This document shows positions 7,441 to 49,689 of a DNA stretch of 64,000 nucleotides, one piece after another. A program made the position numbers and the translations under genes. Location of the stretch: the IMG/VR virus record IMGVR_UViG_3300027759_003166; one strand, 5' to 3'. This stretch comes from a virus (Duplodnaviria; Caudoviricetes). How positions within the stretch are numbered: position 1 is the first letter of the stretch; each line of letters opens with the position of its first letter. Below the pieces are notes generated by a model. The model saw only the letters and a program-made list of their open reading frames with translations. It did no database searches and was not told the origin of the DNA.

Positions 7441-7441
7441 A

Positions 7442-19400: not shown

Positions 19401-22400
19401 CAACTACCGACATTGTTGTTGGACAAATAATTAGTCTATTAAATTCTCCAACTTCAAATCTACGCAAAGATACAGTTGTTAATTCTGTTAACTCTTTGAA
19501 TAATTCTATTACAATAAGTCAAACTTATTACGCAATTAAATCTGTTAGAGCAACATCAACAAATATTAATTCTGATATTGTTGTTATAACCGTTGTTCCG
19601 TTTAATGGAGCAATTGTAGTTGGGGATTTGATTTCACTAGATGGAATTGAGAAAACTGAATTTAATGGAATATATTATATTTCAAGTATTACAGATAAAA
19701 ATAAGTTTATTGTAAAATCTAATTCAGTATTATCAACTACAGCAACAGTACTTACATATGGTGAAGCAAGCATTACAATATCTTCTATGCTAGGTAGCAT
19801 TGACACAGATAGTGTATTACTAGATCATATATCTGAAACATTTATTCCTGATGATAATAATCATATAGAAGTTGATATAATGTTGCAGTATGATGATATT
19901 ACTAAAATTGAAATATTTAAAGACGGCGAAACTTTGCCAATGCTTACTGGAATTCCAATTGTAGGACCATATCCTACCAGTGAATATTATCATATAACAA
20001 AAAATGTAATTACTGGTGGTGCTATAGTAAACTTCTATCAAATGACCAGCAATAGTTATGATTTAGATTTCTACTCGTATACCAATCCAAAACTTGAATT
20101 CTGGAAAACTGATGTATTATCTGCAAGATTAGATTCTGTATTACCTGGTGGCTCCGTTAACTGGGGTAATTTTGCCGGAGGACTAGGCGTTCGATATGGA
20201 ACAGTTTTACCCGAAGAAGGCACCAATTCTATAATTATAGATGGCGATTCATTCTTAAATGAAAGATCAGGATATGCACCTGATGAATGTGTAGCTGGAC
20301 ACGTATTAGATAGCTTAGGTATTAATGTTTATACCAAAGCTGAAAATTCTTATCCTACTGTTATAACTGGCTCATTCCCTGTAAAAAAAGGAACACTAAC
20401 TGCTTATGAATTAAGTGTACCCGAAACAGAGTATGCAGGCATAATGGTTAATTTTAATGGAAAAATATTTGATAGAGTTGATAATGCTACCCAATTTACA
20501 AATTCTCATCAATATTATATGATTGGGAATACAATCCATCTTCCACTACAATCTGTATCTGGAACAGCTGGATATACAATGGTTTCTATAGGTGGTAATT
20601 ATTCTTTACTCGATAGCAATATTGAAGGAGTATCTGGTGTTACATCTGCTACTGTAATAAGTTTGTTGTCAAGTATCAACGATGTTGTTATGGCTTATGT
20701 ATTAGTCGACGGTCATGAAATTTCTCAAGATACTCCAGAATCAGGTGATACAAAATATTATAAATTAACTGCTTATAGTAATAAAAATAATAGAGCAAGT
20801 GTACAAGTTTATGGTATTGATACTAATTCACATACCATTGAGGCTTGGTTCTTCCAATCTAAATATACAAAATTTAATAGGTTACACGAAGAATCACAAG
20901 ACGGATCAGCTTCCCAATCAATGTTTACTCTTTCTTTTGTACCAGGAAATATTGAGCCAGTAAGCGCTCAAGTAATAGTTGAAATAGATGATGGCAGCTC
21001 AGGAAGAAGAAGATTATCACCACCTTGGGTTAGTTATTATCAAATTAAAGATGCTCAACTAACATTTGCAATTGATAGTAAGAATTTATCACGTACATAT
21101 ACTGCTGGTCAAGTAATGGTATATGCAAATGGAATAGAATTGCGTCCTGGATTTGATTATACATTTAATGATATTGATAGTACAGTAACAATCATTTCTG
21201 GACTACTGAGTATAGGTGATGTTATTGCAGTAGTAGGATTAATTGATTATGACTATATTGTAGTTGGTAATATATTACAGTTAACAAACCCACCTGTTAG
21301 TACTTTTAATTTAAAAATTATATCATTTACTGATCATGATAAAATGTTAATTAGAACAGAAAGATTTAACGGAACAATTGCTCGACGTTATACACTATCT
21401 TTCTCTGTATTGTCTGATAATTACGTTTGGGTATATGTTGATGGAATTTCATTAACTGCTAGAACAGAGTTTGAAATTCTTGATGACATGAAAACTATTC
21501 AGATAAGTGATTTGATTGATGTTTCCCCAAGTTCAAAAATAACAATTACCACAGTTAATCCACAATCTTATAACAATCAAATTATTGGATTTAGAATGTT
21601 TAATGATATTTTTGATAGACATCATTATAAGAGACTATCAAAATTTCATAGCACAACGTTGTTACGTGCATTAAGACATACTGATAATGAAATTTATCTA
21701 ACTGATGGCAATGGAATAATTCCGCCTAATCCATTAACTAACAATCCTGGTATTGTTATAATTGATGGTGAGCGTATTGAATTTGCAGAAAAAGATGGAA
21801 ATACTTTAAGAGGTCTAAGAAGAAGTAGTCTAGGAACTGGGCCTGCCACTTATTCAGCAGTTGGAACACAAGTAATAGATCAAAGTTCACAACAAACAAT
21901 ACCTTATCTTGATACAATATTAGTACAGTCGACCTCTACTACAAGTACAACCTACATTATTAGTACAGTAACTACTACCGCTACAGGTGCCGGAATTGTT
22001 TTAGATCCAAATATTGATGCTGTAAATCAGGTTACTGTATATTACGGCGGCCGTCAATTACGTAAAACATCTTTGGTTGTTCATGATAAGTTCTATGACA
22101 AACCTGTATATAATCCAGACCCTAGAACAGCATATATTTTGATTTTTGGGCAATCTAATATAGCTAATTACGGCGAACATACAGATAGTTACACACCCAA
22201 TGATAAAGTAAAACGTCTTGATATAAATGGTAATTGGGAACTTGCTGTATCGCCAGGCGGTCCTAACAGATTGGCCACAGGATATAATTGGAGCACTGGC
22301 TCATCAGTAGATATACCAGGAGGACCATCCGGAGGCAACATGGATGGAAGAATTGGTGATACTCTTCTTCAGAGTGGAAAGTATGACAAAGTTTACATTG

Positions 22401-29222: not shown

Positions 29223-30470
29223 ATGGCATATATTTTAAATAAAACTAACGGATCAATTGTTGCAACAGTACAAGATGCAACAATTGATACAACTACTGAT
29301 TTATCATTTGTAGGTAGAAACTATGCTGGCTATGGCGAAATTCAAAATGAGAATTTTCTAAAATTATTAGAAAATTTTGCTAATTCAACAGCTCCACCAA
29401 AGCCTATTGAAGGTCAACTTTGGTATGATACTTCTGGTAAACATTTAAATTTTTATAATACAGTTAATTGGAAAAGTATTCCTTCTTTGGAAATTAGTAA
29501 TAACAACCCAGTTGAAACTACCACTCCTGTACTAGGAGATCTGTGGTACAATTCAGTAGAACAACAATTGAGTATATACAACGGATCCCAATATGTTATA
29601 ATTGGGCCACCAATTGGTGCTAATACTAAAGCAGGGTGGCGCGGCGACTTTGAAAAAGAAAGTAATACTCCTATCTATAATACCAAAGCAGTTATTAATG
29701 ATGAAGTTATTGCAACAGTTTCTGCACAGACATATACATTAAGTGATCTTGCTAGTAGTGCATATCCAATATATAATTTAGGTTCAAGATTATATAAAGG
29801 AATTAATTTAAATGGTGCTGATCCTATTACAGGAAGTTCGGAGTCAGTAAGTTCATATTTTTGGGGAACTGCTGCTCATGCATTGCGAGCTAATACATCT
29901 ACCTATTCAAACGGATTTGTAACTGAACTTGATGAAACAACAAACAAATATAAACCCGTAACATTTATTACCACATCTTCGGCTTCCTTAACAGATGGAA
30001 CTATTGCTATAAATTATGGATTCACATATAATCCATCTACTAATTATGTTAAAGCAACAAGGTTCGAAGGCGTTGCTACTAGTGCATTTTATGCCGACTT
30101 AGCTGAAAGATATGAAGCAGATGCTGTCTATGAACCTGGAACCGTTTTAGTCATAAGTGGAGAAAAAGAAGTTACTATTTCTACATTATATGCTGATACA
30201 AGGGTAGCGGGCATAGTAAGTACAAACCCGGCATATATGATGAATTCTGAGGCAGGATCCGACGAAACACACCCCTATATTGCCTTAAAAGGCCGTGTTC
30301 CTTGCCAAGTTGTGGGTACTATTAATAAAGGTGATCTTCTAGTAACAAGTGCATATCCAGGATATGCTACTGCATGGTTGGGCGGCTCGGCACCAGACGG
30401 AACAGTCATAGCAAAAGCCCTAGGAACTCAATCCGAGGGCTTTGGTGTTATAGAAGTATTAGTAGTCTAA
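29223..30470 (+). CDS. Tail fibre/baseplate protein paralog with C-terminal autoproteolytic-chaperone-like domain
   Basis: N-terminal GRNYAGYGEIQNENFLKLLENFA...GQLWYD; C-terminal ADLAERY...PGTVLV...IALKGRVPC...KGDLLVTS resembles fibre maturation domains. Confidence 0.7.
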   Translation: MAYILNKTNGSIVATVQDATIDTTTDLSFVGRNYAGYGEIQNENFLKLLENFANSTAPPKPIEGQLWYDTSGKHLNFYNTVNWKSIPSLEISNNNPVETTTPVLGDLWYNSVEQQLSIYNGSQYVIIGPPIGANTKAGWRGDFEKESNTPIYNTKAVINDEVIATVSAQTYTLSDLASSAYPIYNLGSRLYKGINLNGADPITGSSESVSSYFWGTAAHALRANTSTYSNGFVTELDETTNKYKPVTFITTSSASLTDGTIAINYGFTYNPSTNYVKATRFEGVATSAFYADLAERYEADAVYEPGTVLVISGEKEVTISTLYADTRVAGIVSTNPAYMMNSEAGSDETHPYIALKGRVPCQVVGTINKGDLLVTSAYPGYATAWLGGSAPDGTVIAKALGTQSEGFGVIEVLVV

Positions 30471-31348
30471 ACTGCCATTGGCGCCTTAATGGTTGCATAG
30501 CAATTATAGTCAACCAATTTAACATCTTGCATGGTAAATTTGGTTATTTCGGTAATATCTGTATTGAGTTCCACTGTAGGTAGTACCAATGGTTCTCTAC
30601 TTAATTGTTCTCTTACTTGCTCTAAGTGATTGTCATAGATATGTGCATCACCAAATGAAATAATTAATTCGCCCACTGATAGTTCACATATCTGTGCAAT
30701 CATATGAGTGAATAATGCGTAACTTGCTATGTTAAATGGCACTCCAAGAAACATATCTGCACTACGTTGATACATATGGCAACTTAACTTACCACTGGTG
30801 CTTACATAAAATTGTGCCATCATGTGACATGGAGGCAATGCCATTGAGTCAAGTTCCCCAGGATTCCATGCACTAAGAATATGTCTACGTCCATATGGAT
30901 CTTTCTTGATACCATTAATCAATAGTTGAAGTTGATCAATATGTTTAACTGCCATACGGTTAGCACCAAATATTGGAGCACGCCATGAACGCCATTGCAC
31001 TCCGTATACTCTACCAAGGTCACCTTTGAATCTAGCCTTTGGTCGCCAATAGTCTGCGTTAGCATTGCCAGACCAGATAGTACTTTCTGTACTAGTACGA
31101 CTACCGTGTAGAATCTCTTTCAAACGATTCTCGTCACCGCTACCTTCAATAAACCAAAGAAGTTCACTAACAACAGATTTCCAGGCCAACCGTTTTGTGG
31201 TAATGGCCGGAAATCCTTCTTGTAGATCAAACTTTAATTGTAGTCCAAATTTACTAATAGTACCAATACCAGTTCTATCAGGGCGATGTTCACCCGTGTC
31301 TAAAATTTCTCTTAGAGCACTAAGATAAGCGTCTTCGGGATGTATCAT
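30467..31348 (-). CDS. thyA: Thymidylate synthase
   Basis: MALPPCH catalytic Cys motif; YQRSADMFLGVPFNIASY; GDAHIYDNH. Confidence 0.97.
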   Translation of the reverse strand: MIHPEDAYLSALREILDTGEHRPDRTGIGTISKFGLQLKFDLQEGFPAITTKRLAWKSVVSELLWFIEGSGDENRLKEILHGSRTSTESTIWSGNANADYWRPKARFKGDLGRVYGVQWRSWRAPIFGANRMAVKHIDQLQLLINGIKKDPYGRRHILSAWNPGELDSMALPPCHMMAQFYVSTSGKLSCHMYQRSADMFLGVPFNIASYALFTHMIAQICELSVGELIISFGDAHIYDNHLEQVREQLSREPLVLPTVELNTDITEITKFTMQDVKLVDYNCYATIKAPMAV

Positions 31349-32543: not shown

Positions 32544-33806
32544 TTATTTATAATAAGCTGTCTGGCCGAAGGGTGCAATTATGGTATCATTGCCGTGAAT
32601 AACAAACAAACTTTCGCAATGGTCCTCATCTCCCCAGCTTCCGCAAGGATATCCATCTGTAAACATAATAAAACGCTTGGGATTAATATCTTCACGCTTC
32701 ATAAATTCGTAGTTAGCATCAAAGTCTGTACCGCCACCGCCCTTAACTTCGTAGCTCATAATGTCATCTGCATTGTCTCCAGAGAACTGAGCATAGTTGT
32801 ATACTTCTGTATCAAAGCACCATAGATTCAATTTAAAATCTTTATACTCATCCATAATACCTTTAACTTCACTGATAAAGTCTTTGGCCATTGTATCAGA
32901 AATACTACCGCTCATATCAATGGCTACGGACACATCAATAGTTTCTTCATTCATCATTCCGGGCAGGATAGCACCGCAATGTTGGCTTTTACGATTTGGA
33001 CGAGAAAAGCTAAAATTGCTCTTGAAGATACTTTGGATATTCATACGCAGGATCTGACGCCAGTCCATTTTAGGCTCAGTAAAGTCACTGATCATACGAC
33101 GGATACCTGCTGGCACTCGTCCAGCACCTGCGGATTGAGCAGCAGCCATTACAGCTTCTTTGATCTCATCACGGATAGCTTTCTTTTCTTCAGCAGTTAA
33201 CTTTGGACGACCTTTGCCTTTACCGTTATCATCGCCATCTTCTCCGTCGCCGCCTTCACCATCTTCGCCATCCAAGTGTTCGTCTAGCAATTCGCCAAGT
33301 GAACCAATGTCAATCTTTTCTGCTTTCTCATAGAGCTCGTTATAAATTTCTTCATAGCTCTTTCCACGATACTTGTCATCTTGGAAGATCTTAATGAAAC
33401 TTGGCACTACACCAATACGTTCATCTTTTAGAATTTGATTAGCAGCATAGTCGGCAGCGATGTTTGACAATGTAGGATCACGACTATCACGCCGGCCCAT
33501 ATGATCAAATACATTATGCAGAACTTCGTGAGCAAAACCAAACTCTGCTTCTTTAGGATTCAATTTATTAACAAATCCATTGTTGTAATAAAAGGTACGT
33601 CCATCTGTGGCCAATGTATTACACCATTCACTGGCATCAACTAATTTCATACGTGTAGCAAGATTGCCGAAGAACGGATGCTTCAATAGTAAACCAACAC
33701 GAGCCGTAATCAGTTTTTCAAGAATCTTATTCTTTTCAGACGGGGTAAACTGTTTACTAGCCCAATCTTCTTTTTTACTTTTTTCGGCTTTCATTACTTT
33801 AGACAT
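32544..33806 (-). CDS. Metallopeptidase-like (HExxH) plus VWA domain protein (DUF2201-like)
   Basis: AHEVLH zincin motif; VAIDMSGSIS MIDAS motif; GGGGTDF; IMFTDGY; adjacent to a MoxR-type ATPase. Confidence 0.85.
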   Translation of the reverse strand: MSKVMKAEKSKKEDWASKQFTPSEKNKILEKLITARVGLLLKHPFFGNLATRMKLVDASEWCNTLATDGRTFYYNNGFVNKLNPKEAEFGFAHEVLHNVFDHMGRRDSRDPTLSNIAADYAANQILKDERIGVVPSFIKIFQDDKYRGKSYEEIYNELYEKAEKIDIGSLGELLDEHLDGEDGEGGDGEDGDDNGKGKGRPKLTAEEKKAIRDEIKEAVMAAAQSAGAGRVPAGIRRMISDFTEPKMDWRQILRMNIQSIFKSNFSFSRPNRKSQHCGAILPGMMNEETIDVSVAIDMSGSISDTMAKDFISEVKGIMDEYKDFKLNLWCFDTEVYNYAQFSGDNADDIMSYEVKGGGGTDFDANYEFMKREDINPKRFIMFTDGYPCGSWGDEDHCESLFVIHGNDTIIAPFGQTAYYK

Positions 33807-33834
33807 AGTGTATCCTTTTAGTGTTTAAGCATAT

Positions 33835-33863
33835 ATTATACATTAAATTTATCAAAAGAGCAA
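33835..33863 (-). promoter_or_regulatory. Sigma70-type promoter for the VWA gene
   Basis: Minus strand TTGCTC-N17-TATAAT. Confidence 0.6.
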
Positions 33864-33865
33864 GC

Positions 33866-33890
33866 AAAAAGGCCCTTGCGGGCCCTTTTT
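33866..33890 (-). terminator. Rho-independent terminator after the MoxR-like gene
   Basis: Minus strand GGCCC-GCAA-GGGCC-TTTTT (GNRA loop) directly after the TAA; the A-run on the other side could make it bidirectional. Confidence 0.8.
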
Positions 33891-34971
33891 AACTTTCCAT
33901 TGCAACCAAAATGTACTTACCGTACTTGTCGTGGAAACGATCGAAGTGTTTCAATTTGCTAGCATCAAACGGAAGATTGTAGCTAGTCAACGCAACCTTA
34001 GCAGCCATAACAGTTAGCTCAGTTGGGAAGTTATCCATAATGAACAAGAAGAAACGATCTGCCTGTGCATCCCAATCTTTGGCTTTCTTGTTAAAAGCGT
34101 CTTGGAGTTCATAGCAAAGGCTAATGCTCAAAGAGTACATCGCGGAGATTTCTTTAATCTCACATTTGGCAACCTTGCCAGACAAGATGTCTGTTGGGTT
34201 AGGCATTTGTTTAGCAACACGACGGTGTGCCATAAACTTAACAGCAAGTCCTTCACCGATTGCACCAGCAACTAAATCGGTCAATGTGCGCTCATCCAAG
34301 TCGTCGTCCTTGAGCAAATCGCTGACAAAGGACCAAGAACGTGGAGTTGCAAATGCACGGCTTGAAGATTTTGGATCAAAGTCATACAAATCTTGTTTGG
34401 CAAATCCAATATAACCAACAACTTGTTCGTGAAGTTTGTTGTTAACAGCCCACTCTTGCCAATCTTCAAAGTCAGATTTCAATTCGATGTGAACAAAGCG
34501 GTTAGCCAACGGTGCAGGCATACGATAAGTAACGCCTTTGTCAGTTTCACGGTTACCGGCAGCAACAATACTAACACCTTTTGGCAGTTGATAAGTACCA
34601 ACACGACGATTCAATACCAATTGAAAAGCAGCGGCCTGGGTAGCAGGAGCAGCAGAGTTCAATTCATCCAAGAATAGGATAGCAGTAGAATCTGGATCAG
34701 TGGGCAATTCTGCAGGAGGAGCCCAAGTCATAGTATTCTCATTGCTATTGTAATATGGAATACCTTTAATGTCAGTAGGTTCCCAAAGGCTCAAACGAAC
34801 GTCAATGACTTCTCGACCTTGTTCATCACCAATTTGTTTAACGATATCGGATTTGCCAATACCAGGAGGGCCCCACATGAATACAGGACGTTGGATCTTG
34901 ACACATTTACGGATACTGCGCTTGGCTTCGTTAGGAGTAACGGTACGATTAGCGCTCATTGCTTCTGCCAT
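33889..34971 (-). CDS. MoxR-type AAA+ ATPase
   Basis: Walker A GPPGIGKS, Walker B ILFLDE, sensor AAGN, LANRF arginine finger; VWA partner next door. Confidence 0.9.
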   Translation of the reverse strand: MAEAMSANRTVTPNEAKRSIRKCVKIQRPVFMWGPPGIGKSDIVKQIGDEQGREVIDVRLSLWEPTDIKGIPYYNSNENTMTWAPPAELPTDPDSTAILFLDELNSAAPATQAAAFQLVLNRRVGTYQLPKGVSIVAAGNRETDKGVTYRMPAPLANRFVHIELKSDFEDWQEWAVNNKLHEQVVGYIGFAKQDLYDFDPKSSSRAFATPRSWSFVSDLLKDDDLDERTLTDLVAGAIGEGLAVKFMAHRRVAKQMPNPTDILSGKVAKCEIKEISAMYSLSISLCYELQDAFNKKAKDWDAQADRFFLFIMDNFPTELTVMAAKVALTSYNLPFDASKLKHFDRFHDKYGKYILVAMES

Positions 34972-37437: not shown

Positions 37438-37916
37438 TAAGAAATTTCCGATCTACCATCACCTAAATTATTAACATTAATATAACCACTACCACGTCGG
37501 TCCATATTTACACCAGCCTCGGATCCGATATTTCTGCATAAGTCCTGGAACCAAAGATCAACTACGGATTCATCTGTCTCACCTTGATATCCTTCTGTTC
37601 TTAATTGTAGCACAAAGTACTCGTTCCAGTCAAGTTCAAAGAAGCCATTGCGGATATTATCTTTATTAACGTGAGTGTCCATAACTGCTACCCAGGGTTC
37701 TTTCTTTTCTGTAGCAATCTCTTTGGCTGTTTTTTGTTTCTTTATCTTTGGAACCTTAGGTACTGCCACTGGTACATCTTTAACTTCTGGTACAGTTGGC
37801 TCTTCAACTTTTACCGGCTTGTCTTCGATGCCAAATAAATTTTTAATAAATTTTTTCATTGTATTTTCTTTAGTTGGTATAATTGCTTGATCAAGAATGC
37901 CCATTAAGTTCCCCAC
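37437..37916 (-). CDS. Hypothetical protein (may start at 37859, MKKFIK)
   Basis: Coupled to the exonuclease start; conserved-looking C-terminus (GFFELDWNEYFV). Confidence 0.65.
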   Translation of the reverse strand: MGNLMGILDQAIIPTKENTMKKFIKNLFGIEDKPVKVEEPTVPEVKDVPVAVPKVPKIKKQKTAKEIATEKKEPWVAVMDTHVNKDNIRNGFFELDWNEYFVLQLRTEGYQGETDESVVDLWFQDLCRNIGSEAGVNMDRRGSGYINVNNLGDGRSEIS

Positions 37917-38761
37917 TCATTTTTAAAGAGCGGAACTTGTAAACGATCACTATAACGTAAACCGTGCTTCATTGCTAACAATGCTACATTACGATTGTTC
38001 ATTGCATACACACTTTCAACACCACCTACTGGCATTAGATAGATATGACCAATAAATCCTGCCTTGCGATAAGCAGCAATCGCACATTCGGCATCAGCAA
38101 AGTCTTGTTCTGTGGCAATAACAAACTTCAAATATGCTGTACCGTATTCTTCGTACTCGCAAACACGTTCTGGTTTAATAGCTTCATCCCACGGTTCACC
38201 ACTACACGGTAGTTTAGCACTAACACTAAATGTAACTTCTCTATGGAAATCGTAATCGTGATGATATTTCCAAGTATGTAGGTATTGTTTAAATGGTGCT
38301 GTTAACTGCATAGTACCATTTGTTTCAAACGTAATCTCTTTAAGACCTTGCATCTTAGGATGTTTCAACAAGTCTGGATATTGTTTTTGCCAACCTAACA
38401 ATGGCTCGCCACCGGTAATAACTAGATGTTCATCACGCCATTCACTAAATGGAAGGATCTCCATAATACGTTCTACAATTGCATCTGTAGTCAACATTGG
38501 ACTTAGATCTTTAAAACGTGGATCCCAACTTGCGTAACTATCACACCCTGTACTTACTAATGGCAATTTTTTATAGTCGTCGTAGTAATGAATACGTGCT
38601 GCAATATCTTCTACCTCACGACTTAGTTCGCCACGTGGCATACCAAATCCTTGACATTTAAAATTACAACCAAACGTTCTAAGGAACACGCTGGGCACTC
38701 CCATATAACGTCCTTCACCCTGCACACTATAAAACAATTCTGCTATTTTAATCTTCGACAT
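37904..38761 (-). CDS. queE: 7-carboxy-7-deazaguanine synthase (radical SAM)
   Basis: ELFYSVQGEGRYMGVPSVFLRTFGCNFKC, with the third Cys after a 36-residue insert (CX3CX36C); VITGGEPLL, ETNGT, LKFVI, RLQVPLF are QueE motifs. Confidence 0.88.
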   Translation of the reverse strand: MSKIKIAELFYSVQGEGRYMGVPSVFLRTFGCNFKCQGFGMPRGELSREVEDIAARIHYYDDYKKLPLVSTGCDSYASWDPRFKDLSPMLTTDAIVERIMEILPFSEWRDEHLVITGGEPLLGWQKQYPDLLKHPKMQGLKEITFETNGTMQLTAPFKQYLHTWKYHHDYDFHREVTFSVSAKLPCSGEPWDEAIKPERVCEYEEYGTAYLKFVIATEQDFADAECAIAAYRKAGFIGHIYLMPVGGVESVYAMNNRNVALLAMKHGLRYSDRLQVPLFKNEWGT

Positions 38762-39758
38762 GTTCAACCTTTATAATTTTAATAGTTTCCATCCAACTAA
38801 GAGTAGTTAATACAATGGTTTTTAATTGACTATATTTAGGTTGCCATTGAGTATCCGACATAAATTTAGTTGGATCTGCAATCAACTCATCTGGGTCACC
38901 TAATCTTCTCGGCCCTAATTCATAATCAACATCTAGACCGGTGGCAGATTCTACTGCTTTTACTATTTCTAGATTGCTAATACCTTGACCTGTTCCTAGA
39001 TTATACGCTTCAAATGTACCCTGGTCAAGTGTTTTAGCAAGATCAACAGCTTGTACGTGAGCACTAGCAATATCTGAAACGTGTAGATAATCTCGAATAC
39101 ACGTACCATCTTTGGTTAAAAAATCATTGCCGTTTAAAATTAATGTATTTTTTTCTAGCACACTTTGTATTACCTTTGGAATCAAATGTGTATCATTCCA
39201 ATTATTACCAAGTTCTACTTCTGGATCACATCCACAGGCATTAAAGTATCTTAGTGCAATACCTTTATATCCATGTGCTTGTACATGACTTTCAATGACG
39301 TATTCACACATCTTTTTACTATGACCGTATGGACTTACAGGTGTACCTTGTGCATATTCAGCAATAGGAACAGAACAATCATTGCCATAAGTTGCTGCAC
39401 TACTGCTAAAGATGATTGTACCTTTCCATCCTAACTTAGATAAGTCGTCTAACATACGATTAGTCTTGGCAACATTATTATCATAATATTCACCAGGATC
39501 AGCAATACTAGGACCAACTAAGCTAGTTCCAGCAATATGTATAATTGTGTCTACATTGTTTATGTTAGCAGCCGTTGCTGTAATGTTTACGAAGTCGTCA
39601 ATGATTAATTCGTTGACAAACATAGAAGCATTTGGAATAGTCCAAGTGCGGTCAATGCCAATTACATAATAGCCAGCCTGCTGAAAGGCCTTAGCGGTAT
39701 GACTACCGATAAAGCCCATCGCGCCTGTTATGATGACTCGTTTAGTATTTTGACTCAC
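38748..39758 (-). CDS. galE: NAD-dependent nucleotide-sugar epimerase (GalE-like)
   Basis: ITGAMGFIGSH Rossmann motif, SSSAATYG, YGHSK (YxxxK), LRYFNA, RDYLHVSD; probable GTG start at 39758. Confidence 0.85.
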   Translation of the reverse strand: MSQNTKRVIITGAMGFIGSHTAKAFQQAGYYVIGIDRTWTIPNASMFVNELIIDDFVNITATAANINNVDTIIHIAGTSLVGPSIADPGEYYDNNVAKTNRMLDDLSKLGWKGTIIFSSSAATYGNDCSVPIAEYAQGTPVSPYGHSKKMCEYVIESHVQAHGYKGIALRYFNACGCDPEVELGNNWNDTHLIPKVIQSVLEKNTLILNGNDFLTKDGTCIRDYLHVSDIASAHVQAVDLAKTLDQGTFEAYNLGTGQGISNLEIVKAVESATGLDVDYELGPRRLGDPDELIADPTKFMSDTQWQPKYSQLKTIVLTTLSWMETIKIIKVEHVED

Positions 39759-40917
39759 GAGTATGTTTCCTATAGTCAGTGCCCATACGTAACATACTGT
39801 CACCTGTACCTTCTAATATATTACAAATACGGTCAATAGTACCGTCATTGTAATCACTAATCATACCTAACTTAGGATCTGGCCAAGTTAACAATACTTC
39901 TAATTTATTTAGAGCATCGTCAATAGACCAGGGAACATATAAGCGAGTGTGATCGTTGGCAAAAGTTTCAGGGAAGCTACGATAAGCAGGATACAATACA
40001 TTACAACCTAACGCATCGGCTTCACTGACTGTGTTTGATACCCAGTCTTGCAAAGCACAATTAAACACCACACGACTATCATTAACAATGTTGTAGTAGT
40101 CATTTTTTTCTAGATCCTGATAAATTTTTAGTATGCCCTTGGCCTCTAGATTGCGTGTACGTTCCATATAGCTTTCGCTATTTGATTTAAGTTTGCCACC
40201 ACTACATACACAGAATTCTGTGCTGTTACCTGGATGTCGTTTGTAGAACTCTTCAATGAGATCCATATAGAAGTCTGGTTGCTTCTCTTGATCCCACCGT
40301 GCTGAGAATACCACACGATTCTTGCGTTCAGCAAATGGTTTAATATTTCCTACACGACCTTGTACTTCACTCTTGCCAAATGCTAATCCACTGATATTGT
40401 AGATTGGACTTTTCCAACCTGCAATCTTCATATGCATTACCATTTCTTCATTAGTTGCAAGTACTCCGTCCACAAATGAGTCAACCATTTTTTCGTAGTG
40501 ACCCATGAAATCCTGCATACCCCATACATGAACAAAATCGTCAGGATCAATGGACTGAGCAAGACAGCGAACATAAATCCTAGGCCTGTGAATAGGATCA
40601 ATTTGCTTAAGAATATACGGAAGACTTTCGATTCCGGGCTGAAACATGTCTTCAAAGTAGACAACATCTTCATTATTCAATTCTCCTTGTTTCATCATCT
40701 TAATTAGATTCATTAGCTGTGACATACCAAAGTATGTACGACCATGTGCATCCAATACTTGACCTGTTACGATTGCTTGGTCATTGCTGAGTGTTTCGCC
40801 AGGCACAACAATATAGTCGATACCGCGACGATCGAATACAGCAGTATTCCAGTCTTGCAATTGATATGTATATCGGGCGACATATTTTTCTAACCCCATA
40901 TAATATAGTTTACGCAT
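39742..40917 (-). CDS. GT-B fold glycosyltransferase (GT4-like)
   Basis: VVFSARWDQEKQPD and EKNDYYNIVNDSRVVFNCALQDWVSNTVSEADALGCNVLYP match the nucleotide-sugar-binding half of GT-B enzymes. Confidence 0.75.
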   Translation of the reverse strand: MRKLYYMGLEKYVARYTYQLQDWNTAVFDRRGIDYIVVPGETLSNDQAIVTGQVLDAHGRTYFGMSQLMNLIKMMKQGELNNEDVVYFEDMFQPGIESLPYILKQIDPIHRPRIYVRCLAQSIDPDDFVHVWGMQDFMGHYEKMVDSFVDGVLATNEEMVMHMKIAGWKSPIYNISGLAFGKSEVQGRVGNIKPFAERKNRVVFSARWDQEKQPDFYMDLIEEFYKRHPGNSTEFCVCSGGKLKSNSESYMERTRNLEAKGILKIYQDLEKNDYYNIVNDSRVVFNCALQDWVSNTVSEADALGCNVLYPAYRSFPETFANDHTRLYVPWSIDDALNKLEVLLTWPDPKLGMISDYNDGTIDRICNILEGTGDSMLRMGTDYRKHTRESKY

Positions 40918-41153
40918 TATTGATCCTGATATTCACGTTGGGGCTTTCCAGAAGCCTCGCGACGTGCCTTACGCTGCAAATACTCTTGTTCTTGTTGGAA
41001 CCTACGATAGTCATTGGAACGATAAAGATCCTTCTCATTGTAGGGGAGAAGATTAAATCTGCAATGATCTAACCAAGCATCGAGATCATCAAAGATCCGA
41101 TTAACTTCGGGTTTCATTTTAAGAGTTTTTTGAATGTAATTTGGCTGTGCCAT
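40917..41153 (-). CDS. Hypothetical protein (78 aa)
   Basis: Stop/start overlap with the glycosyltransferase. Confidence 0.65.
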   Translation of the reverse strand: MAQPNYIQKTLKMKPEVNRIFDDLDAWLDHCRFNLLPYNEKDLYRSNDYRRFQQEQEYLQRKARREASGKPQREYQDQ

Positions 41154-41170
41154 TTAAGTTTTTCCTATTA

Positions 41171-41554
41171 TTAGGGTTGATTAACAAATGTAAGTGTGGC
41201 ACCATTCTCGCCATCTTCACTTACGTCAATGATGGTCTTACGACCAGGGTACCTTGCGGTAATTGTCGTGTTAAGTTCACGAGCAATCATTTCACAAGAT
41301 TTGTGGTTGAGTTCAAGAATGCCATCATTGTAGCACTTCTCAAGCCAACGCTTAAACTGGATAAATTCAATATCGCGGTCATCTTGGAAGACCTCAATAG
41401 AAACTTTAAAATGGAAAATGTGTCGATGTGGAGTTCCAAGGAAACTTACATCATATTCGTCGCCTGTGGCCAACTTAGGATCAGTTGCGGCTGCGGGATA
41501 GCAGTGAATACCTTCTTTTTGAAATTTCACCCAGATAACTGATAAATCGTTCAT
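41171..41554 (-). CDS. dpdL: QueD-paralog T-fold protein (DpdL-like)
   Basis: GIH...LGTPHRHIF...SCEMIA...VSEDGENGA aligns by eye with QueD, but has LxxxHRHxF in place of CxxxHGH. As I recall it, that is the signature described for the phage CDG decarboxylase DpdL; an HMM check is needed. Confidence 0.6.
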   Translation of the reverse strand: MNDLSVIWVKFQKEGIHCYPAAATDPKLATGDEYDVSFLGTPHRHIFHFKVSIEVFQDDRDIEFIQFKRWLEKCYNDGILELNHKSCEMIARELNTTITARYPGRKTIIDVSEDGENGATLTFVNQP

Positions 41555-42057
41555 TTAATTACTTCGTCTTTGGTATATTGAGACCAGTCTGTAAAGGTCT
41601 CACGGGTTAATAAATTGTGTAGGCTATGACACCACACACCGGGGTTTGTCGACTTGAAGTTGTTGTCGTCAAGTTTAATTATAGCATTATAACCTAGTTG
41701 TTGTAAATAGGGCAGTTTCACCGAAATCATTGGAATGAAATTATGATACTCAGCAAATCCAGTTTCTAACAATCCTTCTACACACTTAACATCTACGTCC
41801 AATGTACATTGATAATCTCTGTTAAGGAAATACTTGATCATATTTTCCCAGTCTACCCAACCACGAGCATTGGTGTCATAATTAGGAAAACTTTGATTAG
41901 CACCAAAGTAGATATGCTCGCAGCCGTTGAGTTTGGCAGCAATAGCATCTACATCTTGTACACCAACAACAAACAATGTTCTCTTACCGTATGCAGGAGT
42001 ATGTTCTACTTCCGTACCGTAGAAGAAGTCTGCGTTTTCGTGTCCTTCTCTTTCCAT
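41551..42057 (-). CDS. Hypothetical protein (~168 aa) inside the deazaguanine cluster
   Basis: ATG at 42057 is 1 nt after the dpdA stop; ATGA overlap with the dpdL-like gene. Confidence 0.7.
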   Translation of the reverse strand: MEREGHENADFFYGTEVEHTPAYGKRTLFVVGVQDVDAIAAKLNGCEHIYFGANQSFPNYDTNARGWVDWENMIKYFLNRDYQCTLDVDVKCVEGLLETGFAEYHNFIPMISVKLPYLQQLGYNAIIKLDDNNFKSTNPGVWCHSLHNLLTRETFTDWSQYTKDEVIK

Positions 42058-42058
42058 T

Positions 42059-43618
42059 TTATTCTCCAAGGTCGTCGCTTAATTTCTGTAATGCTGAATC
42101 ATTAGCATCTGAAAGATCAATTTCATCAGCACGAGTAACTTCTTCAACATCAAATAATCCACCAAATAGATTATCATTCTGTCCGTTAGTGGTGTTACGA
42201 GCACCTGCAATACTGATCAAGAATGCCTTAGCAGTTGGATGCTCTAACATCTCCATGGCTTCTGTTAATGTTTTGGTATTAAACAATTCTTCAACAAAAC
42301 GATCAAAGTACAATACATTACGTGGCACCCATTCACTAAACTGATCACTGGCAAGTTCTTTGGCGTTAAGTTTCTTCCATGAACGCCAGTCTGGTTTGAA
42401 TCTTGCACTTTCGATGTCAGCATAATGATTAGCACGTTGTACTGCCTCAATATGACATTGTACATTATGTGCCATATACAATGAATAAGCAAAACTATCC
42501 CAAGAAGTTTTACCTTCTTTGCCAATCTTGTTTAACATTCCTGGAGCATAATGACAAATGTCGCCCATTACAAGTCTGCGGCCGATCTCTGATTCAAAGG
42601 GGAATGGGATATCGCTTCCTGCAAGTGCTTTGTTGTCTGGGGCTTTTTCCATAACAACACTGAACTTTTTCGAAGTGTGGATTGGGTTTGTGTAAACGAG
42701 TCCGTGTGCTGTTGCGACAAACGGTGAGGCGCAGTCAAAAGATATGGTAACTTCTTCATTAATATGTTTCCTGAGTTGTCGTTGAATTGAAGTTAGATAG
42801 CAAGCCCAATCTAACTGTGCTGTACCCAAGAAGTGGATCCAGTTCTTGCCTGTGAGCATGCCTTCCTCGCGCATGATCATCAAACGCTTTAAAGTGATGT
42901 CCATCTTACTCATATTGACACCACCCATTGCCCAACCCTCTGCTGCTTTATCTCCCCATACAGCAGGGTCACTATATTCTTTAACACCTTCATACCAAGA
43001 CTGTGCGCTATGCCAATCGCTGCCTTGTAAAACATTTAACCACTTGGTCTTACCTAACCGATTCTTTAAAAAGTAATCGTTATTGAAACGAGTTTTTTGT
43101 AAACAATCAGCAGGACTTGTTAATCCGGTTCTTGCTTGATTATTCTTATCACAGGCCCAAATAGGCACATCCAACATCATTGACCAGTCAGCAGTTAATT
43201 CTAACCAAGCAATAATAGAATCACGAGTTTTGTTGGCTGCTTTACCTTCAAAGTCTTGCCAATCAAACTTTAAAATGCCTTTACCAATCTGATATCCACC
43301 TGAGTCACCTAAGATCATAGTTTTAGCATGATTACGATCGTGTATCATGACTTCTTGTACCAAACTTTTTTCTATATCTAACTGTGCATGACCGGCAGAG
43401 TATAGACCATAATTATAAGTAAAGTATCCTTGCTCTTCGTTTAAGAAGTTCATACCTTCGATACCACGATCAAATCCTTTAGGGATACGATCCTTGGGTA
43501 CAAAATCACTTAGTCGTTGTTTGGCAACGTAGGTGCTGTAGAAACTGCTGATTGCTGGCAAATAGCAGGCATAATCCCTATTCAGGGGCGATAAATCAAC
43601 TGGTGGATTACTTTTCAT
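42059..43618 (-). CDS. dpdA: DNA-guanine transglycosylase (TGT family, DpdA-like)
   Basis: ILGDSGGYQ (TGT DSGG motif), MMLDVP, VLQG, IHFLGT, ISFDCASP; probable start MKSNPP at 43618, 4 nt after the clamp stop. Confidence 0.8.
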   Translation of the reverse strand: MKSNPPVDLSPLNRDYACYLPAISSFYSTYVAKQRLSDFVPKDRIPKGFDRGIEGMNFLNEEQGYFTYNYGLYSAGHAQLDIEKSLVQEVMIHDRNHAKTMILGDSGGYQIGKGILKFDWQDFEGKAANKTRDSIIAWLELTADWSMMLDVPIWACDKNNQARTGLTSPADCLQKTRFNNDYFLKNRLGKTKWLNVLQGSDWHSAQSWYEGVKEYSDPAVWGDKAAEGWAMGGVNMSKMDITLKRLMIMREEGMLTGKNWIHFLGTAQLDWACYLTSIQRQLRKHINEEVTISFDCASPFVATAHGLVYTNPIHTSKKFSVVMEKAPDNKALAGSDIPFPFESEIGRRLVMGDICHYAPGMLNKIGKEGKTSWDSFAYSLYMAHNVQCHIEAVQRANHYADIESARFKPDWRSWKKLNAKELASDQFSEWVPRNVLYFDRFVEELFNTKTLTEAMEMLEHPTAKAFLISIAGARNTTNGQNDNLFGGLFDVEEVTRADEIDLSDANDSALQKLSDDLGE

Positions 43619-44412: not shown

Positions 44413-47085
44413 TTATTCAAAGCTGAATAATGAACCAAAATTATTTGTTTGTGTAGTAGATTCTAGATCCCACTCTAGAACTCCGATAAGATTATCGAGT
44501 TTATTATTAATAATAACAGTTTCCATATCAGCGTGATCAAATGGTAAGTCTTGAAACCATTTAGGTAGTCGTAGTTCGTCAACCGGATATGCCACGCTGG
44601 TATAGCCAAGTGGATTATCTTTTAACTTACAAACAATTACTTTCATACCATCGACAATATTGGTGCTGTATTTGTCACCATTCATACGTTTAAGAGTATT
44701 CCAGTTGATACTAGCACGAACATGTCCGGGCATATTTGCTTTACCTGCCTTACGTTCTTTTTCTTGATATTCAGCAATGTTGTTGGCACGTTTAGGACTA
44801 CCCTTCTCCCATCCAGGTCGTGCTTTAAATTCAGTTCTAAATTCATTAATCATATCAAGAATTTCTTCTTCCTGACTACCATTTAGAACTTTGGTTAGTA
44901 CTTCTTCAAGAAACTTCTGCATGAATTCTGGAGTATCGCTACGTTTCAAATCTAAACCCATGGCTTTAATTTTGCCAGGTTTAGTATCACTGTCATATCT
45001 CTTGCCATCCTTGTCATAGTACAATACAGCATAACGCTTTTTGGTAATAAACAAGCCTTTGATAGCAACAATTTCACGTCCTGCTTTAATAACTTCACCA
45101 CGTGATTTTGGACAGTGGAATGTATCTAACATGAATTGTGGAAATGTAGCATTAACATTATCTGCAATTGTATTGTATAGTTGTATAGCAATATCTTTAT
45201 CCCAAGGTAGTAATTTCTTTTGAATATCAATCTTTAATGTATTGTAGGCAGAGAAGTAACAACTGTCTGTATCACCATATATAATACTTTTACCAACGTG
45301 ATCAAAATCACCTGTAATAACTTCATTAACTTTACCTGCCATATGGCGAGCAATGGCACGACCGGTAAGTGTGGTACTTTGTCCAATACGCTTGTCAAAG
45401 AATCTGCAACCTGGATTCAAAATAGCACCGTACAAACTATTCAAGTTAATCTTCTTAACCAGTTGTCGTTTGTCCCAGTATTCTTCTTCAATCTTATTGC
45501 CGGCATCGATTGCTGCTTTAAGTTTCTTCTGCATGTCTTTACGCTCACTGTACCAGCGAGCCAGCAAGCCGGGAATAATACCTTCTTGCTCATGGGTAAA
45601 GATTGTGCCATTTGCACTGAGCATCCATGGGTTATTACTTTCATATATTAATCTATAAGCCTCGGCACCGCTTAGTATATCATACTCGCCATTTTCCCAA
45701 TCAATGGTAATTTCAAATGCACGATCTTGTCGCATTACTGCTTCGAATTCTAAGCTGCCAAACATACCTTCCCATGCAGCCGCAAAGGATTTTTTATCCA
45801 ATGTTGTTTGTTTATGAATAAATTCATCGGTATTAGTTTGTCGTATTTGTCCAACAATGGTTTCTGGACCCATATTCAATGCACGAATAACACTGGGATA
45901 TAGACTGTTAATGTCCATGCTTCCGATGTAATCATGTAATCCTTTTTTAGGATATGCTACATAAGCACCTGCGGCTTGATTGTTTTCAGTCTCATCACGC
46001 TTGGCACGACTTGGAACAATTAACCCTCTGTGATGTGCTTCATTAACAATTGCTTGTTCTGTTACTGCCACGGCACCCATGGTGGTCTGTAGCAATACAG
46101 TACATTCGTGTGCTAGTGTATTGGCAAGATCTATAAACTTTAGTTTCTTATCTAACTTATCAAGTAGTGCGGTATCTTGTCTATTGTATTCAATGAACTT
46201 GCGGAAGTCTTTATTATAAAGTTGATCCAGTGTACCTTCGTAGACAGTCTTGCTCTCACCTACTTCCATCTCTCCAATGGCATCGAGCCTGTAGGTATGG
46301 CGTTCTTCGTAGGTGTATTTCCTGTACAGTTCGAGACTGTCCAAATGAACGCGACCAATAAGATCATAAGTAACAGCCTGTTTCCCATATTTCTCGTATT
46401 CTCTCTTTTTTGGAAATTGATCCCACAAACAAAATCTGCGTGTATCTTCTTTGCTCAATACCTTAGTGACTCTATTAACAGTATAAGGAATATCAAAACC
46501 TTCACTATTCCAACCGCTTAATACATCAGCATCTTCAATTAATGTTAGAAATGCATCTAACATCTCTGCTTCTGTTTCAAACAACACAGTATTAGGAAAG
46601 TCCTTGACCTGTTCCTTAGCCTGCTCCATGGTTAGAGTCTTGGGTGGAACAGCAAAACATACCAGTGTGTCTAACCATTGTAAGTGAACAGCGATCGCAG
46701 TGATGGGCATAAAAGCATCTTCAGGAGTGCTATAGCCACGTTCCGGATCAAAGTCTACCTCAATGTCAAAAAATGCTACGTGTAATTTTGGTGGATCAAT
46801 GCCGAGATAATGATCTTCCAAACAGCGGAATGCTGGTTTGATATCGCTTTCGTAGAGTCTACGTTCGCCGTGGATGCGTAGTTCTTTTTGAAAGTCCTTG
46901 TTATTTCTACAAGTAACTTTATTTAGATTCTCACCGTAGATTGATTTGTACTTACCCTTTTGATCAGGATAATAAAAGATAAATTTGGCAGGATATTCTT
47001 GATAGATTCTACCCTTCTTTGCATCGCGCTCAACTACCTTAACAATATCTTTGTCGCGATCCCACCATGCGTCAACATATGACAT
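44413..47085 (-). CDS. Family B DNA polymerase (T4 gp43-like)
   Basis: Exo I FFDIEVD, Exo II GWNSEGFD, Exo III YNRQD; Pol DINSLYPS, KINLNSLYG, YGDTDS. Confidence 0.97.
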   Translation of the reverse strand: MSYVDAWWDRDKDIVKVVERDAKKGRIYQEYPAKFIFYYPDQKGKYKSIYGENLNKVTCRNNKDFQKELRIHGERRLYESDIKPAFRCLEDHYLGIDPPKLHVAFFDIEVDFDPERGYSTPEDAFMPITAIAVHLQWLDTLVCFAVPPKTLTMEQAKEQVKDFPNTVLFETEAEMLDAFLTLIEDADVLSGWNSEGFDIPYTVNRVTKVLSKEDTRRFCLWDQFPKKREYEKYGKQAVTYDLIGRVHLDSLELYRKYTYEERHTYRLDAIGEMEVGESKTVYEGTLDQLYNKDFRKFIEYNRQDTALLDKLDKKLKFIDLANTLAHECTVLLQTTMGAVAVTEQAIVNEAHHRGLIVPSRAKRDETENNQAAGAYVAYPKKGLHDYIGSMDINSLYPSVIRALNMGPETIVGQIRQTNTDEFIHKQTTLDKKSFAAAWEGMFGSLEFEAVMRQDRAFEITIDWENGEYDILSGAEAYRLIYESNNPWMLSANGTIFTHEQEGIIPGLLARWYSERKDMQKKLKAAIDAGNKIEEEYWDKRQLVKKINLNSLYGAILNPGCRFFDKRIGQSTTLTGRAIARHMAGKVNEVITGDFDHVGKSIIYGDTDSCYFSAYNTLKIDIQKKLLPWDKDIAIQLYNTIADNVNATFPQFMLDTFHCPKSRGEVIKAGREIVAIKGLFITKKRYAVLYYDKDGKRYDSDTKPGKIKAMGLDLKRSDTPEFMQKFLEEVLTKVLNGSQEEEILDMINEFRTEFKARPGWEKGSPKRANNIAEYQEKERKAGKANMPGHVRASINWNTLKRMNGDKYSTNIVDGMKVIVCKLKDNPLGYTSVAYPVDELRLPKWFQDLPFDHADMETVIINNKLDNLIGVLEWDLESTTQTNNFGSLFSFE

Positions 47086-48906: not shown

Positions 48907-49689
48907 TTAGCAATTCCATTTACGTAATGCCAATGCCTTGCGTGTAGGTTCACCATTGGGCTTTTTCATAGGACCATCAACTCCACCCATTCTAGCACAG
49001 AATGATTTACGGCGTTTGGCGGATTTACTGCCAGCTTTTAATTTACTGGGTTTAGTGGTAACTGCCGTTTGTAGTTTGCTACCAGGGTGCTCTCTACGAT
49101 AACTAGCAACACCTTTGGCATTTAGTCCGCCAGACTTGCTTTTGCCGGCCTTACGATGCCACGCAGCAGATTCATTTAATTCATCTTCTAAAAACGTATC
49201 AGCAAACTTTTCGCATAGTGCTCTAATGTCTGAGTTGTTTGTTTCTTGTAGAGTAAATTCTCTTTCTTCGTGTTCGTCGTCACCTTGGCTTGGATCCATA
49301 TAACCGCAATATACTTTACGTATGATAGAATTATTGATTAGATCGGTACAACTATCTCCGTGCCTTTCTTGTGCAGTTTCATCACTAAATTCACTGCAAG
49401 GACTCAGCGTAGTAATAAGAATACTGCCTTCTGGAATGTCACCATATTTTCTATCATAGGCTTCCATGGCTGCTTTCTCTGCATGAACATGTAAATCGCC
49501 TTGCATATAATTCAATCCTAAAACTAAATTATTGTCAGGATCTAATACAGCAGCAGCAACCATGCCGTAACGTTCGCTATCCCTTTTCTGGCCTTCAATA
49601 ACCAGTTTGCAGAGTTTAACCAAGATACCGTCCAACTTGGTTAGATTGCGTATCTCGTAGTCAGTTTGGTCAAACTCTGTAAATCTCAT
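48907..49689 (-). CDS. Zn-dependent cytidine/dCMP-deaminase-fold protein fused to a basic C-terminal module
   Basis: HAE...TLSPC...C zinc motif, with VAAAVL and KVYCGYMDP; after ELNE a separate K/R-rich module (SAAW...RRKSFCARM...RKWNC). Confidence 0.75.
   Translation of the reverse strand: MRFTEFDQTDYEIRNLTKLDGILVKLCKLVIEGQKRDSERYGMVAAAVLDPDNNLVLGLNYMQGDLHVHAEKAAMEAYDRKYGDIPEGSILITTLSPCSEFSDETAQERHGDSCTDLINNSIIRKVYCGYMDPSQGDDEHEEREFTLQETNNSDIRALCEKFADTFLEDELNESAAWHRKAGKSKSGGLNAKGVASYRREHPGSKLQTAVTTKPSKLKAGSKSAKRRKSFCARMGGVDGPMKKPNGEPTRKALALRKWNC

Follow-up and report, generated by a model that had tools for sequence, protein, structure and literature searches.

Why should a phage keep a glycosyltransferase and a sugar epimerase among genes for 7-deazaguanine modification of DNA? 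The question is raised by a stretch of 64,000 nucleotides of viral DNA (IMG/VR record IMGVR_UViG_3300027759_003166), called the window below, which carries an operon with a DpdA-like gene, a DpdL gene, a gene for a GT-B glycosyltransferase (GT), a GalE gene and a QueE-like gene. A preliminary description of this DNA suggested that the two sugar enzymes may decorate the base inserted by the DpdA-like enzyme. To our knowledge the sugar-bearing bases of DNA are all pyrimidines: glucosyl-hydroxymethylcytosine, base J, glycosylated hydroxymethyluracil and 5-hydroxycytosine. No report linking a GT to 7-deazaguanine DNA modification, or describing a glycosylated deazapurine in DNA, was found in the searchable literature, with subscription journals and a 2024 MMBR review outside the scope of the search. 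Cui et al. (PMC10516641) and a preprint on END nucleases discuss the clusters of the phages ACP17 and PA5oct, in both cases with the GT unmentioned. We find the GT to be strongly linked in function to the deazaguanine pathway, and we propose that it may place a hexose on a 7-deazaguanine base.

The linkage was followed through the whole GT family. Grouped at 90% identity it forms more than 8000 clusters, for the most part of freshwater metagenome origin; at 50% identity 771 representatives remain. In almost all of about 100 viral loci examined the GT adjoins DpdL. The two genes lie within about 3 kb of each other in 80 IMG/VR loci of the window's own group; 14 further IMG/VR loci, with GTs 31-46% identical, all combine QueD, QueE, FolE, DpdL and the GT with a protein of a third candidate family of transglycosylases, called F23; and the pair is found side by side or nearby on the metagenome contigs L107, L108, L111 and L113. 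Members only 31% identical still adjoin DpdL, QueD, QueE and FolE on unrelated contigs. For two distant members, P0264 and P0228, the viral-contig scans gave no loci, and the short contigs with P0264 show no DpdL. The family profile also detects two unannotated proteins of cultured phages, EST35_0317 of PA5oct (4e-42) and gp124 of ACP17 (2e-41), both encoded directly upstream of DpdL.

A census of cultured phages comprised 13 lineages carrying DpdL. Six of them (BUCT-ZZ01, BUDD/X1, the PA5oct group, ACP17, Phosso and BCSR5) have the GT at most about 3 kb from DpdL, and searches of the complete ACP17, Phosso and BCSR5 genomes gave just this one copy. The other seven (the phiST group, RHph_I1_18, Bakedbeans, Ahp1, D479, Roos and MA9V-3) have it nowhere in the genome. 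Phages with and without the GT are intermingled in the DpdL tree, PA5oct for example being the sister of the GT-less Ahp1, and well-supported branches force at least four changes; the GT therefore appears to be an optional add-on which has been gained or lost repeatedly. The preliminary description had asked how often the GT occurs together with dpdA. The partner turned out to vary by lineage among three DpdA-types (families F8, F14 and F23) while DpdL and the GT stay paired, so the GT is tied to DpdL and not to a particular DpdA. The position of the GT among deazaguanine genes, which had drawn attention to the window, thus reflects a real linkage but is no peculiarity of this phage: it is a recurrent module of DpdL clusters, including those of PA5oct and ACP17.

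This linkage bears on the reading that the GT and GalE act on an unrelated target, be it glycans of the host envelope, a protein of the phage or hydroxymethyl-pyrimidines. The synthesis of cell-surface glycans is a common role of GT4 enzymes, and in some sources relatives of the GT bear the name 'glycosyltransferase involved in cell wall biosynthesis'. Such a target is difficult to reconcile with a GT which sits in the deazaguanine cluster of six cultured lineages and keeps its linkage down to about 22-31% identity on unrelated backbones. As for hydroxymethyl-pyrimidines, the thymidylate synthase of the window is canonical, as first described, and all four related records having a match to the thymidylate synthase family carry exactly one, including one 100% complete genome; the absence of a route to such an acceptor, also stated at the outset, is therefore upheld. 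A search of the relatives for Tet/JBP, made without a positive control, gave no match. We give an unrelated target very little chance.

The identification of the GT itself comes from fold and motifs. Its structure model (pLDDT 95.4) has its top Foldseek matches among MshA, BshA and glycogen synthase (best E 8e-13), together with sucrose-phosphate synthase and PimA, and alignment to GT4 enzymes with VIA-align gives Z values of 24-27 (best 26.9 over 344 residues) at 8-13% identity. Across the family R207 and K212 do not vary, and D291 and E299 hardly do. In the profile alignment R207...K212 falls on the GRLxxxKxP motif, and D291-x7-E299 on EX7E (second Glu of WlaC, GlgM and MshA), the first acid being Asp, not Glu, in most members. 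These donor motifs are retained in the members from PA5oct, ACP17 and BUDD. Against Pfam Glycos_transf_1 the window's GT scores 22.3 bits, under the gathering threshold of 26.4; PF00534 is matched by 33 of 45 family members (E <0.1; best 4.5e-10), and P0162 passes at 27.7 bits. Because a GT-B fold is combined with family-wide donor motifs, the GT looks catalytically competent, and from the model we take it to be a GT4-type retaining GT-B enzyme; fold, motifs and family-wide Pfam matches all agree with the original call.

MshA, BshA and the cyanobacterial tetrahydrobiopterin glucosyltransferase BGluT resemble the GT in fold, in the R/K phosphate-binding motif and in the acidic-x7-Glu motif, but at the low identity given above, and the invariant set of the GT acceptor domain (E10, R15, Y16, T17, D56, R60, D90, D124, D127, F128, W137, E142) is not matched in them. 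BGluT acts after FolE and the QueD homologue PTPS. By analogy, the GT and DpdL might make a glycosylated small molecule outside DNA, such as a pterin or deazapurine glycoside. Two BGluT structures (5zes and 9v0l) are among the structural matches of the GT with Z about 24, DpdL is a PTPS/QueD-like T-fold protein, FolE is present in most clusters, and the acceptor-domain invariants are mostly acidic or aromatic, as in small-molecule sites. However, the Z values fail to set BGluT apart from dozens of GT4 enzymes, no sepiapterin-reductase-like gene was seen, and each cluster, situated in a replication module, contains QueE and a gene of transglycosylase type as well. It should also be noted that DpdL is without the catalytic Cys which QueD and PTPS require (PMC10516641). 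A product of this kind is in our judgement very unlikely.

Two known systems in which sugars are added to modified bases invite comparison. The alpha- and beta-glucosyltransferases of phage T4 are GT-B enzymes which transfer hexose from a UDP-hexose onto a phage-made modified base, 5-hydroxymethylcytosine, and so protect the DNA against restriction. The GT of the window belongs to the same enzyme class and is predicted to use a UDP-hexose as well, but the T4 acceptor is a hydroxymethyl-pyrimidine made at the nucleotide level, for which the window phage has no route, and the T4 enzymes are outside the top 50 structural matches of the GT, which groups with GT4. In animals the queuosine of tRNA is glycosylated on the cyclopentenediol hydroxyl by QTMAN/GTDC1, a GT-B enzyme of GT4 type, and by QTGAL. 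There, as we propose for the window phage, a sugar is carried by a 7-deazaguanine derivative in a nucleic acid; the differences are that the window phage is without the QueC, QueF, QueA or QueG side-chain route, and that the target would be DNA, not tRNA. The GT as a QTMAN-like queuosine mannosyltransferase was also considered and rejected, since Pfam QTMAN_N (PF12038) gives no match at E <0.1 in any of 45 family members and QTMAN is missing from the top 30 Swiss-Prot fold matches of the GT.

The partner of the GT, DpdL, reads L-G-T-P-H-R-H-I-F in the window. This is the LxxxHRHxF signature which defines DpdL, as opposed to CxxxHGH of QueD (Cui et al., 2023; PMC10516641). In tblastn searches it hits the annotated DpdL genes of ACP17 (58% identity, 2e-37) and phiST (CGPG_00067; 34% identity, 2e-7); signature and homology to these named proteins settle what had been called a dpdL/queD-like gene. 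DpdL has been predicted to be a decarboxylase of 7-carboxy-7-deazaguanine (CDG) by Cui et al. (2023; PMC10516641). We also observed DpdL fused to extra domains at L111:460-1413, in Bakedbeans gp176 (L136:8230-9381) and in MA9V-3 (L141:8395-9276). In its C-terminal part the L111 fusion is similar to a free-standing gene of 155 amino acids (aa) which follows DpdL in L107. This suggests that another conserved partner exists in the pathway.

The DpdA-like protein of 519 aa has no sequence match in Pfam or NCBIfam, even at E 10, or in PDB. An AlphaFold model built with 28 diverse homologues as input (pLDDT 80.3) was compared to PDB with Foldseek, and the top 50 matches were all tRNA-guanine transglycosylase (TGT) of Z. 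mobilis (E about 3e-8, probability 1.00, TM by target about 0.53). Invariant in the 28 sequences are D105-S-G-G, D150, Q198-G199, G232-G233 and H262-x-L-G265, and position 270 is D or E, the nucleophile being mapped by spacing and not by a residue-level structural alignment. These motifs, in short DSGG, LD-P, QG, GG and HxLG, align with those of the TGT-like F14 DpdA of BUCT-ZZ01, BUDD and ACP17 (hhalign E 1.4e-3, probability 17%); between the F8 family, to which the window protein belongs, and DpdA3 of phiST hhalign detected no profile similarity (E 0.16). EST35_0316 of PA5oct is 39.5% identical to the window protein. On this modelled fold F8 is best treated as a divergent, undescribed TGT subfamily, common to the window and PA5oct and outside DpdA1-4; the dpdA-like call of the preliminary description is held by fold match and conserved motifs, without a family-model match.

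Some further observations concern the transglycosylases. In loci L005-L084, whose GTs are 79-100% identical to that of the window, the DpdA-like partner is only 34-98% identical; being far more variable than the GT, the transglycosylase must either evolve much faster or move between genomes. Phosso has an F8-type DpdA-like gene 170 kb away from its cluster of DpdL, GT, FolE and QueE, and a gene annotated as 'glycosylase' lies between the clamp and DpdL (L134:8385-8918). Proteins of family F23 (about 300-370 aa, N-terminal DSGAHS) follow the DpdL/GT pair in L116-L129, at L107:2308-3219 and at L111:2665-3708, and no other transglycosylase was seen in these loci. Comparison of F23 with F8, F14 and DpdA3 by hhalign gave E values of 0.17-0.42, and F23 may be a further DpdA type.

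The supply of CDG was the next element to be accounted for. The QueE-like protein shares 47% identity with the protein annotated as QueE in BUCT-ZZ01. Its matches to all five NCBIfam QueE equivalogs stay far under the cut-offs (best 55.9 bits vs 206), and Pfam Radical_SAM gives 26.9 bits vs a gathering threshold of 29.5; the QueE assignment is backed by the PHROG match, by where the gene lies and by its homology with QueE proteins of phages, not by the curated bacterial models, and the enzyme is accordingly described here as a candidate. The preliminary description found no folE, queD or queC in the window. For folE and queD this was confirmed by tblastn with the FolE and QueD of relatives, but for queC the statement rests on a search of five records of relatives, of which one is 100% complete: Pfam QueC was absent from one (G004) and sub-threshold in the other four, the window itself not being included in this search. 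The proposal to look beyond the window was partly rewarded, as G004, a relative with the same arrangement and a DpdA 94% identical, encodes FolE 58 kb and QueD 46 kb away from the GT, and QueC was not found in the related records. The usual order in relatives is DpdL, GT, (GalE), FolE, QueD, QueE, and nine loci, including those of the window and G004, have no FolE/QueD at that place. By analogy with G004, the window genome very probably has its folE and queD at another place; it very probably makes its own CDG but cannot proceed to preQ0. CDG without an onward route to preQ0 is the situation in which DpdL-type phages are found.

The sugar donor is suggested by the epimerase. GalE reaches 300.5 bits against TIGR01179, with a cut-off of 262.3, and the GxxGxxG and YxxxK motifs can be read in the sequence; with an equivalog-level match and the motifs of the short-chain dehydrogenase/reductase family in place, the epimerase has turned out to be what it was first taken for. 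Translation probably starts with GTG at 39758, preceded by an AGGA motif; the longest open reading frame (ORF) begins at 39803. Of 51 cluster loci of the window's phage group 49 have GalE, and its place within the cluster points to UDP-galactose or UDP-GalNAc as donor in this group; lineages without GalE presumably draw on a UDP-sugar of the host. In or near the cluster of BUCT-ZZ01 (L001:6010-7353) and of a jumbo relative (L049:19683-21035) we observed a second, different GT4-like gene of about 450 aa, which hints at a disaccharide in these two phages. The clusters of BUCT-ZZ01 (L001:4093-4554) and PA5oct (L003:11946-12380) also hold a phosphoribosyltransferase (PF00156), of which there is none in the window operon. 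Such an enzyme could turn a deazapurine base into a nucleotide and thereby open a polymerase route into DNA, instead of or beside DpdA.

From the gene identities, read from fold and motif, and from the linkage of the GT to DpdL we infer a pathway with its donor sugar, acceptor, attachment atom and protective role. FolE and QueD, encoded elsewhere, would together with QueE produce CDG, which DpdL would convert to 7-deazaguanine. The divergent TGT-fold DpdA-like enzyme would exchange guanine in the phage DNA for the deazapurine. GalE would make UDP-galactose (or UDP-GalNAc) from the UDP-glucose pool of the host, and the GT would transfer the hexose, probably galactose here, onto the deazaguanine-derived base, either free before insertion or in DNA after it. 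The eukaryotic TGT inserts the bulky base queuine, and by this analogy DpdA might insert a base already glycosylated as one of the two orders of steps. The product would be a glycosylated 7-deazapurine in virion DNA, protecting it against host nucleases.

Comparison with the cluster of phiST (FolE, QueD, QueE, MazG-like, DpdL, DpdA3; PMC10516641) is instructive for this proposal. Both adjoin replication genes and have a transglycosylase-type gene and an LxxxHRHxF DpdL, and phiST has FolE, QueD and QueE without QueC, as is proposed for the window genome. In contrast to the window, phiST has no GT, GalE or 168-aa protein anywhere in its genome, its DpdA3 is short (259 aa vs 519), and it has MazG-like and kinase-like genes which the window operon does not have. 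The DNA of phiST contains plain 2'-deoxy-7-deazaguanine (dDG) by mass spectrometry (PMC10516641). As phiST has DpdL, no GT and plain dDG, the simplest model has the GT add its sugar to what the DpdL branch produces. PA5oct (Pseudomonas) and ACP17 (Acidovorax) are closer to the window. PA5oct has PolB, a clamp-like protein, an F8 DpdA-like protein, a GT-family protein, DpdL and QueE in the same order, and ACP17 has the 168-aa family, DpdA, the GT family, DpdL and QueE. They differ in that their GTs (353 aa in PA5oct, 342 aa in ACP17) are about 21-23% identical to that of the window and are without an internal segment of about 27 residues, that PA5oct has the phosphoribosyltransferase and a truncated epimerase-like gene, and that the DpdA of ACP17 is TGT-like F14. 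The DNA of PA5oct, which carries the same types of DpdA-like protein, GT and DpdL as the window, resists restriction enzymes whose sites contain G, a pattern pointing to a modified G (PMC12191111) and an indirect argument for guanine exchange by the F8 enzyme.

The GT may also belong to the pathway while the final base is plain dDG (or its 7-carboxy form, dCDG), the GT making a transient glycosylated intermediate or serving DpdL and DpdA as helper or scaffold. In the helper version it could be the 'other unknown enzyme' suspected by Cui et al. (PMC10516641) after failure to reconstitute the ACP17 pathway: dpdL and dpdA of ACP17 alone gave no dDG in E. coli, the GT lies between these two genes in ACP17, and GT, DpdL and a DpdA-type form a contiguous triad in the loci. 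Reconstitution with phiST genes failed too, however, so the failure does not single out the GT, and phiST makes its dDG with no GT in the genome. The family-wide conservation of the donor-binding motifs favours real sugar transfer, and a dedicated GalE and the second GT in some phages suggest that the sugar is retained. We therefore consider it unlikely that the final base is plain.

Several points weigh against a glycosylated base. 7-deazaguanine has no hydroxyl, and a retaining GT4 enzyme would need an unusual nucleophile (C7/C8, N2 or O6) or the carboxyl of CDG. The nearest structural relatives of the GT use small-molecule acceptors, not DNA. Most members of the GT family are acidic (median pI 5.8), although the pI does not discriminate between DNA and a small molecule as acceptor, the DpdA-like protein being equally acidic. 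Linkage indicates a common pathway and not a product; the contigs L109 and L110, only 3-5.5 kb in length, have the GT without DpdL; the activity of DpdL is itself a prediction; heterologous expression of dpdL with dpdA yielded no dDG in E. coli (PMC10516641); and for all GT-bearing phages the sugar on a DNA base is a prediction from gene content. Our confidence that hexose passes through the GT from a UDP donor to the 7-deazaguanine which QueE and DpdL produce, whether ahead of insertion by DpdA or following it, stays near one half because the missing hydroxyl makes the chemistry unusual. More tentatively, we suggest that the six cultured lineages and the window's group carry hexosylated 7-deazaguanine in virion DNA, attached by a GT4 enzyme with an unusual nucleophile, the sugar in the window's group probably being galactose.

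The genes on which this argument is built are collected in Table 1.

Table 1. Genes of the modification operon, from its head onwards, and the thymidylate synthase gene (positions in the window)
Gene product	Position	Strand	Basis and remarks
PolB, family B DNA polymerase	44413..47085	-	PF00136 2.6e-38; PF03104 2.9e-17; phrog_262 1.6e-199; head of the gene run
Clamp-like protein, 244 aa	43623..44357	-	phrog_12062 6.6e-36
DpdA-like candidate DNA-guanine transglycosylase, 519 aa, family F8	42059..43618	-	TGT fold and motifs
Unassigned 168-aa protein, family F10	41551..42057	-	no family match
DpdL, QueD-like T-fold protein	41171..41554	-	LxxxHRHxF signature; phrog_17812 2.6e-33
Unassigned basic 78-aa protein	40917..41153	-	stop overlaps GT start; no family match
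GT4-type (retaining) GT-B glycosyltransferase, 391 aa, family F2	39742..40917	-	fold and donor motifs
GalE, UDP-glucose 4-epimerase	38748..39758	-	TIGR01179 equivalog; PF01370 3.9e-45
QueE-like radical-SAM enzyme, candidate 7-carboxy-7-deazaguanine synthase	37904..38761	-	phrog_2076 'QueE-like' 5.4e-50
Canonical thymidylate synthase (thyA)	30467..31348	-	PF00303 1e-103; PFNIASY with Asn

The intergenic gaps along the minus-strand run from PolB are 55, 4, 1, -4, 17, -1, -17, -14 and -1 nucleotides. A scan of the operon for terminators and promoters gave nothing beyond the expectation from shuffled sequence, and no convincing terminator lies within the run. The same gene order is repeated in 80 IMG/VR loci, and the arrangement is far beyond chance. 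All the genes first listed for the operon are present on the minus strand, but the range then assigned to it, 37904-43618, starts with the DpdA-like gene; the clamp gene lies just outside.

The nearest cultured relative of PolB is found in Sinorhizobium phage Phosso (51% identity), and Atu_ph07 is also close. Directly after PolB both the window and Phosso have the clamp-like gene, whose product is 35% identical to the 'sliding clamp beta' of Phosso (2e-48) and also 35% identical to its PA5oct homologue; by this similarity it appears to be sliding-clamp-like. The 168-aa F10 protein has no match in Pfam, PHROG, NCBIfam or Atlas, and its homologues in 41 loci belong to the window's phage group and to ACP17, where gp122 lies upstream of DpdA. 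The 78-aa protein, also without a match in these four collections, is confined to part of the window's own group. At the DNA level megablast of the region against phage records gave no match. The stretch occurs in assembled contigs of lake and freshwater metagenomes from 10 studies, with no nanopore run listed, and related IMG/VR records reach 367 kb; the source virus is an uncultured freshwater jumbo phage.

Other genes of the window deserve mention. A single ORF of 5261 aa at 7430-23215 on the plus strand, flanked by plus-strand ORFs of 1125, 845 and 766 aa, presumably encodes a giant virion or fibre protein. On the minus strand there are a Fe/Mn superoxide dismutase (PF02777, PF00081; 47774-48316) and a fusion of dCMP deaminase with DUF6321 (48907-49689). 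Just downstream of the modification operon, at 32544-34971 on the same strand, lie a DUF2201 metallopeptidase/VWA-like protein and a MoxR-type AAA ATPase.

If the proposal is true, it would give DNA its first example of a glycosylated base of purine type, the nucleophile being a pyrrole carbon, an exocyclic amine or the carboxyl of CDG. It would add a new class of natural DNA bases and a new acceptor chemistry for GT4 enzymes, and it would bear on the failure to reconstruct the dDG pathway in E. coli with nothing but the ACP17 genes. The idea can be tested directly, since there are six cultured lineages with the module and seven DpdL-bearing lineages without it. As the GT family is very abundant, the modification would be common in nature, and it would then matter for sequencing bias in metagenomes, for nanopore basecalling and for defence systems which sense modified G, such as the END nucleases.

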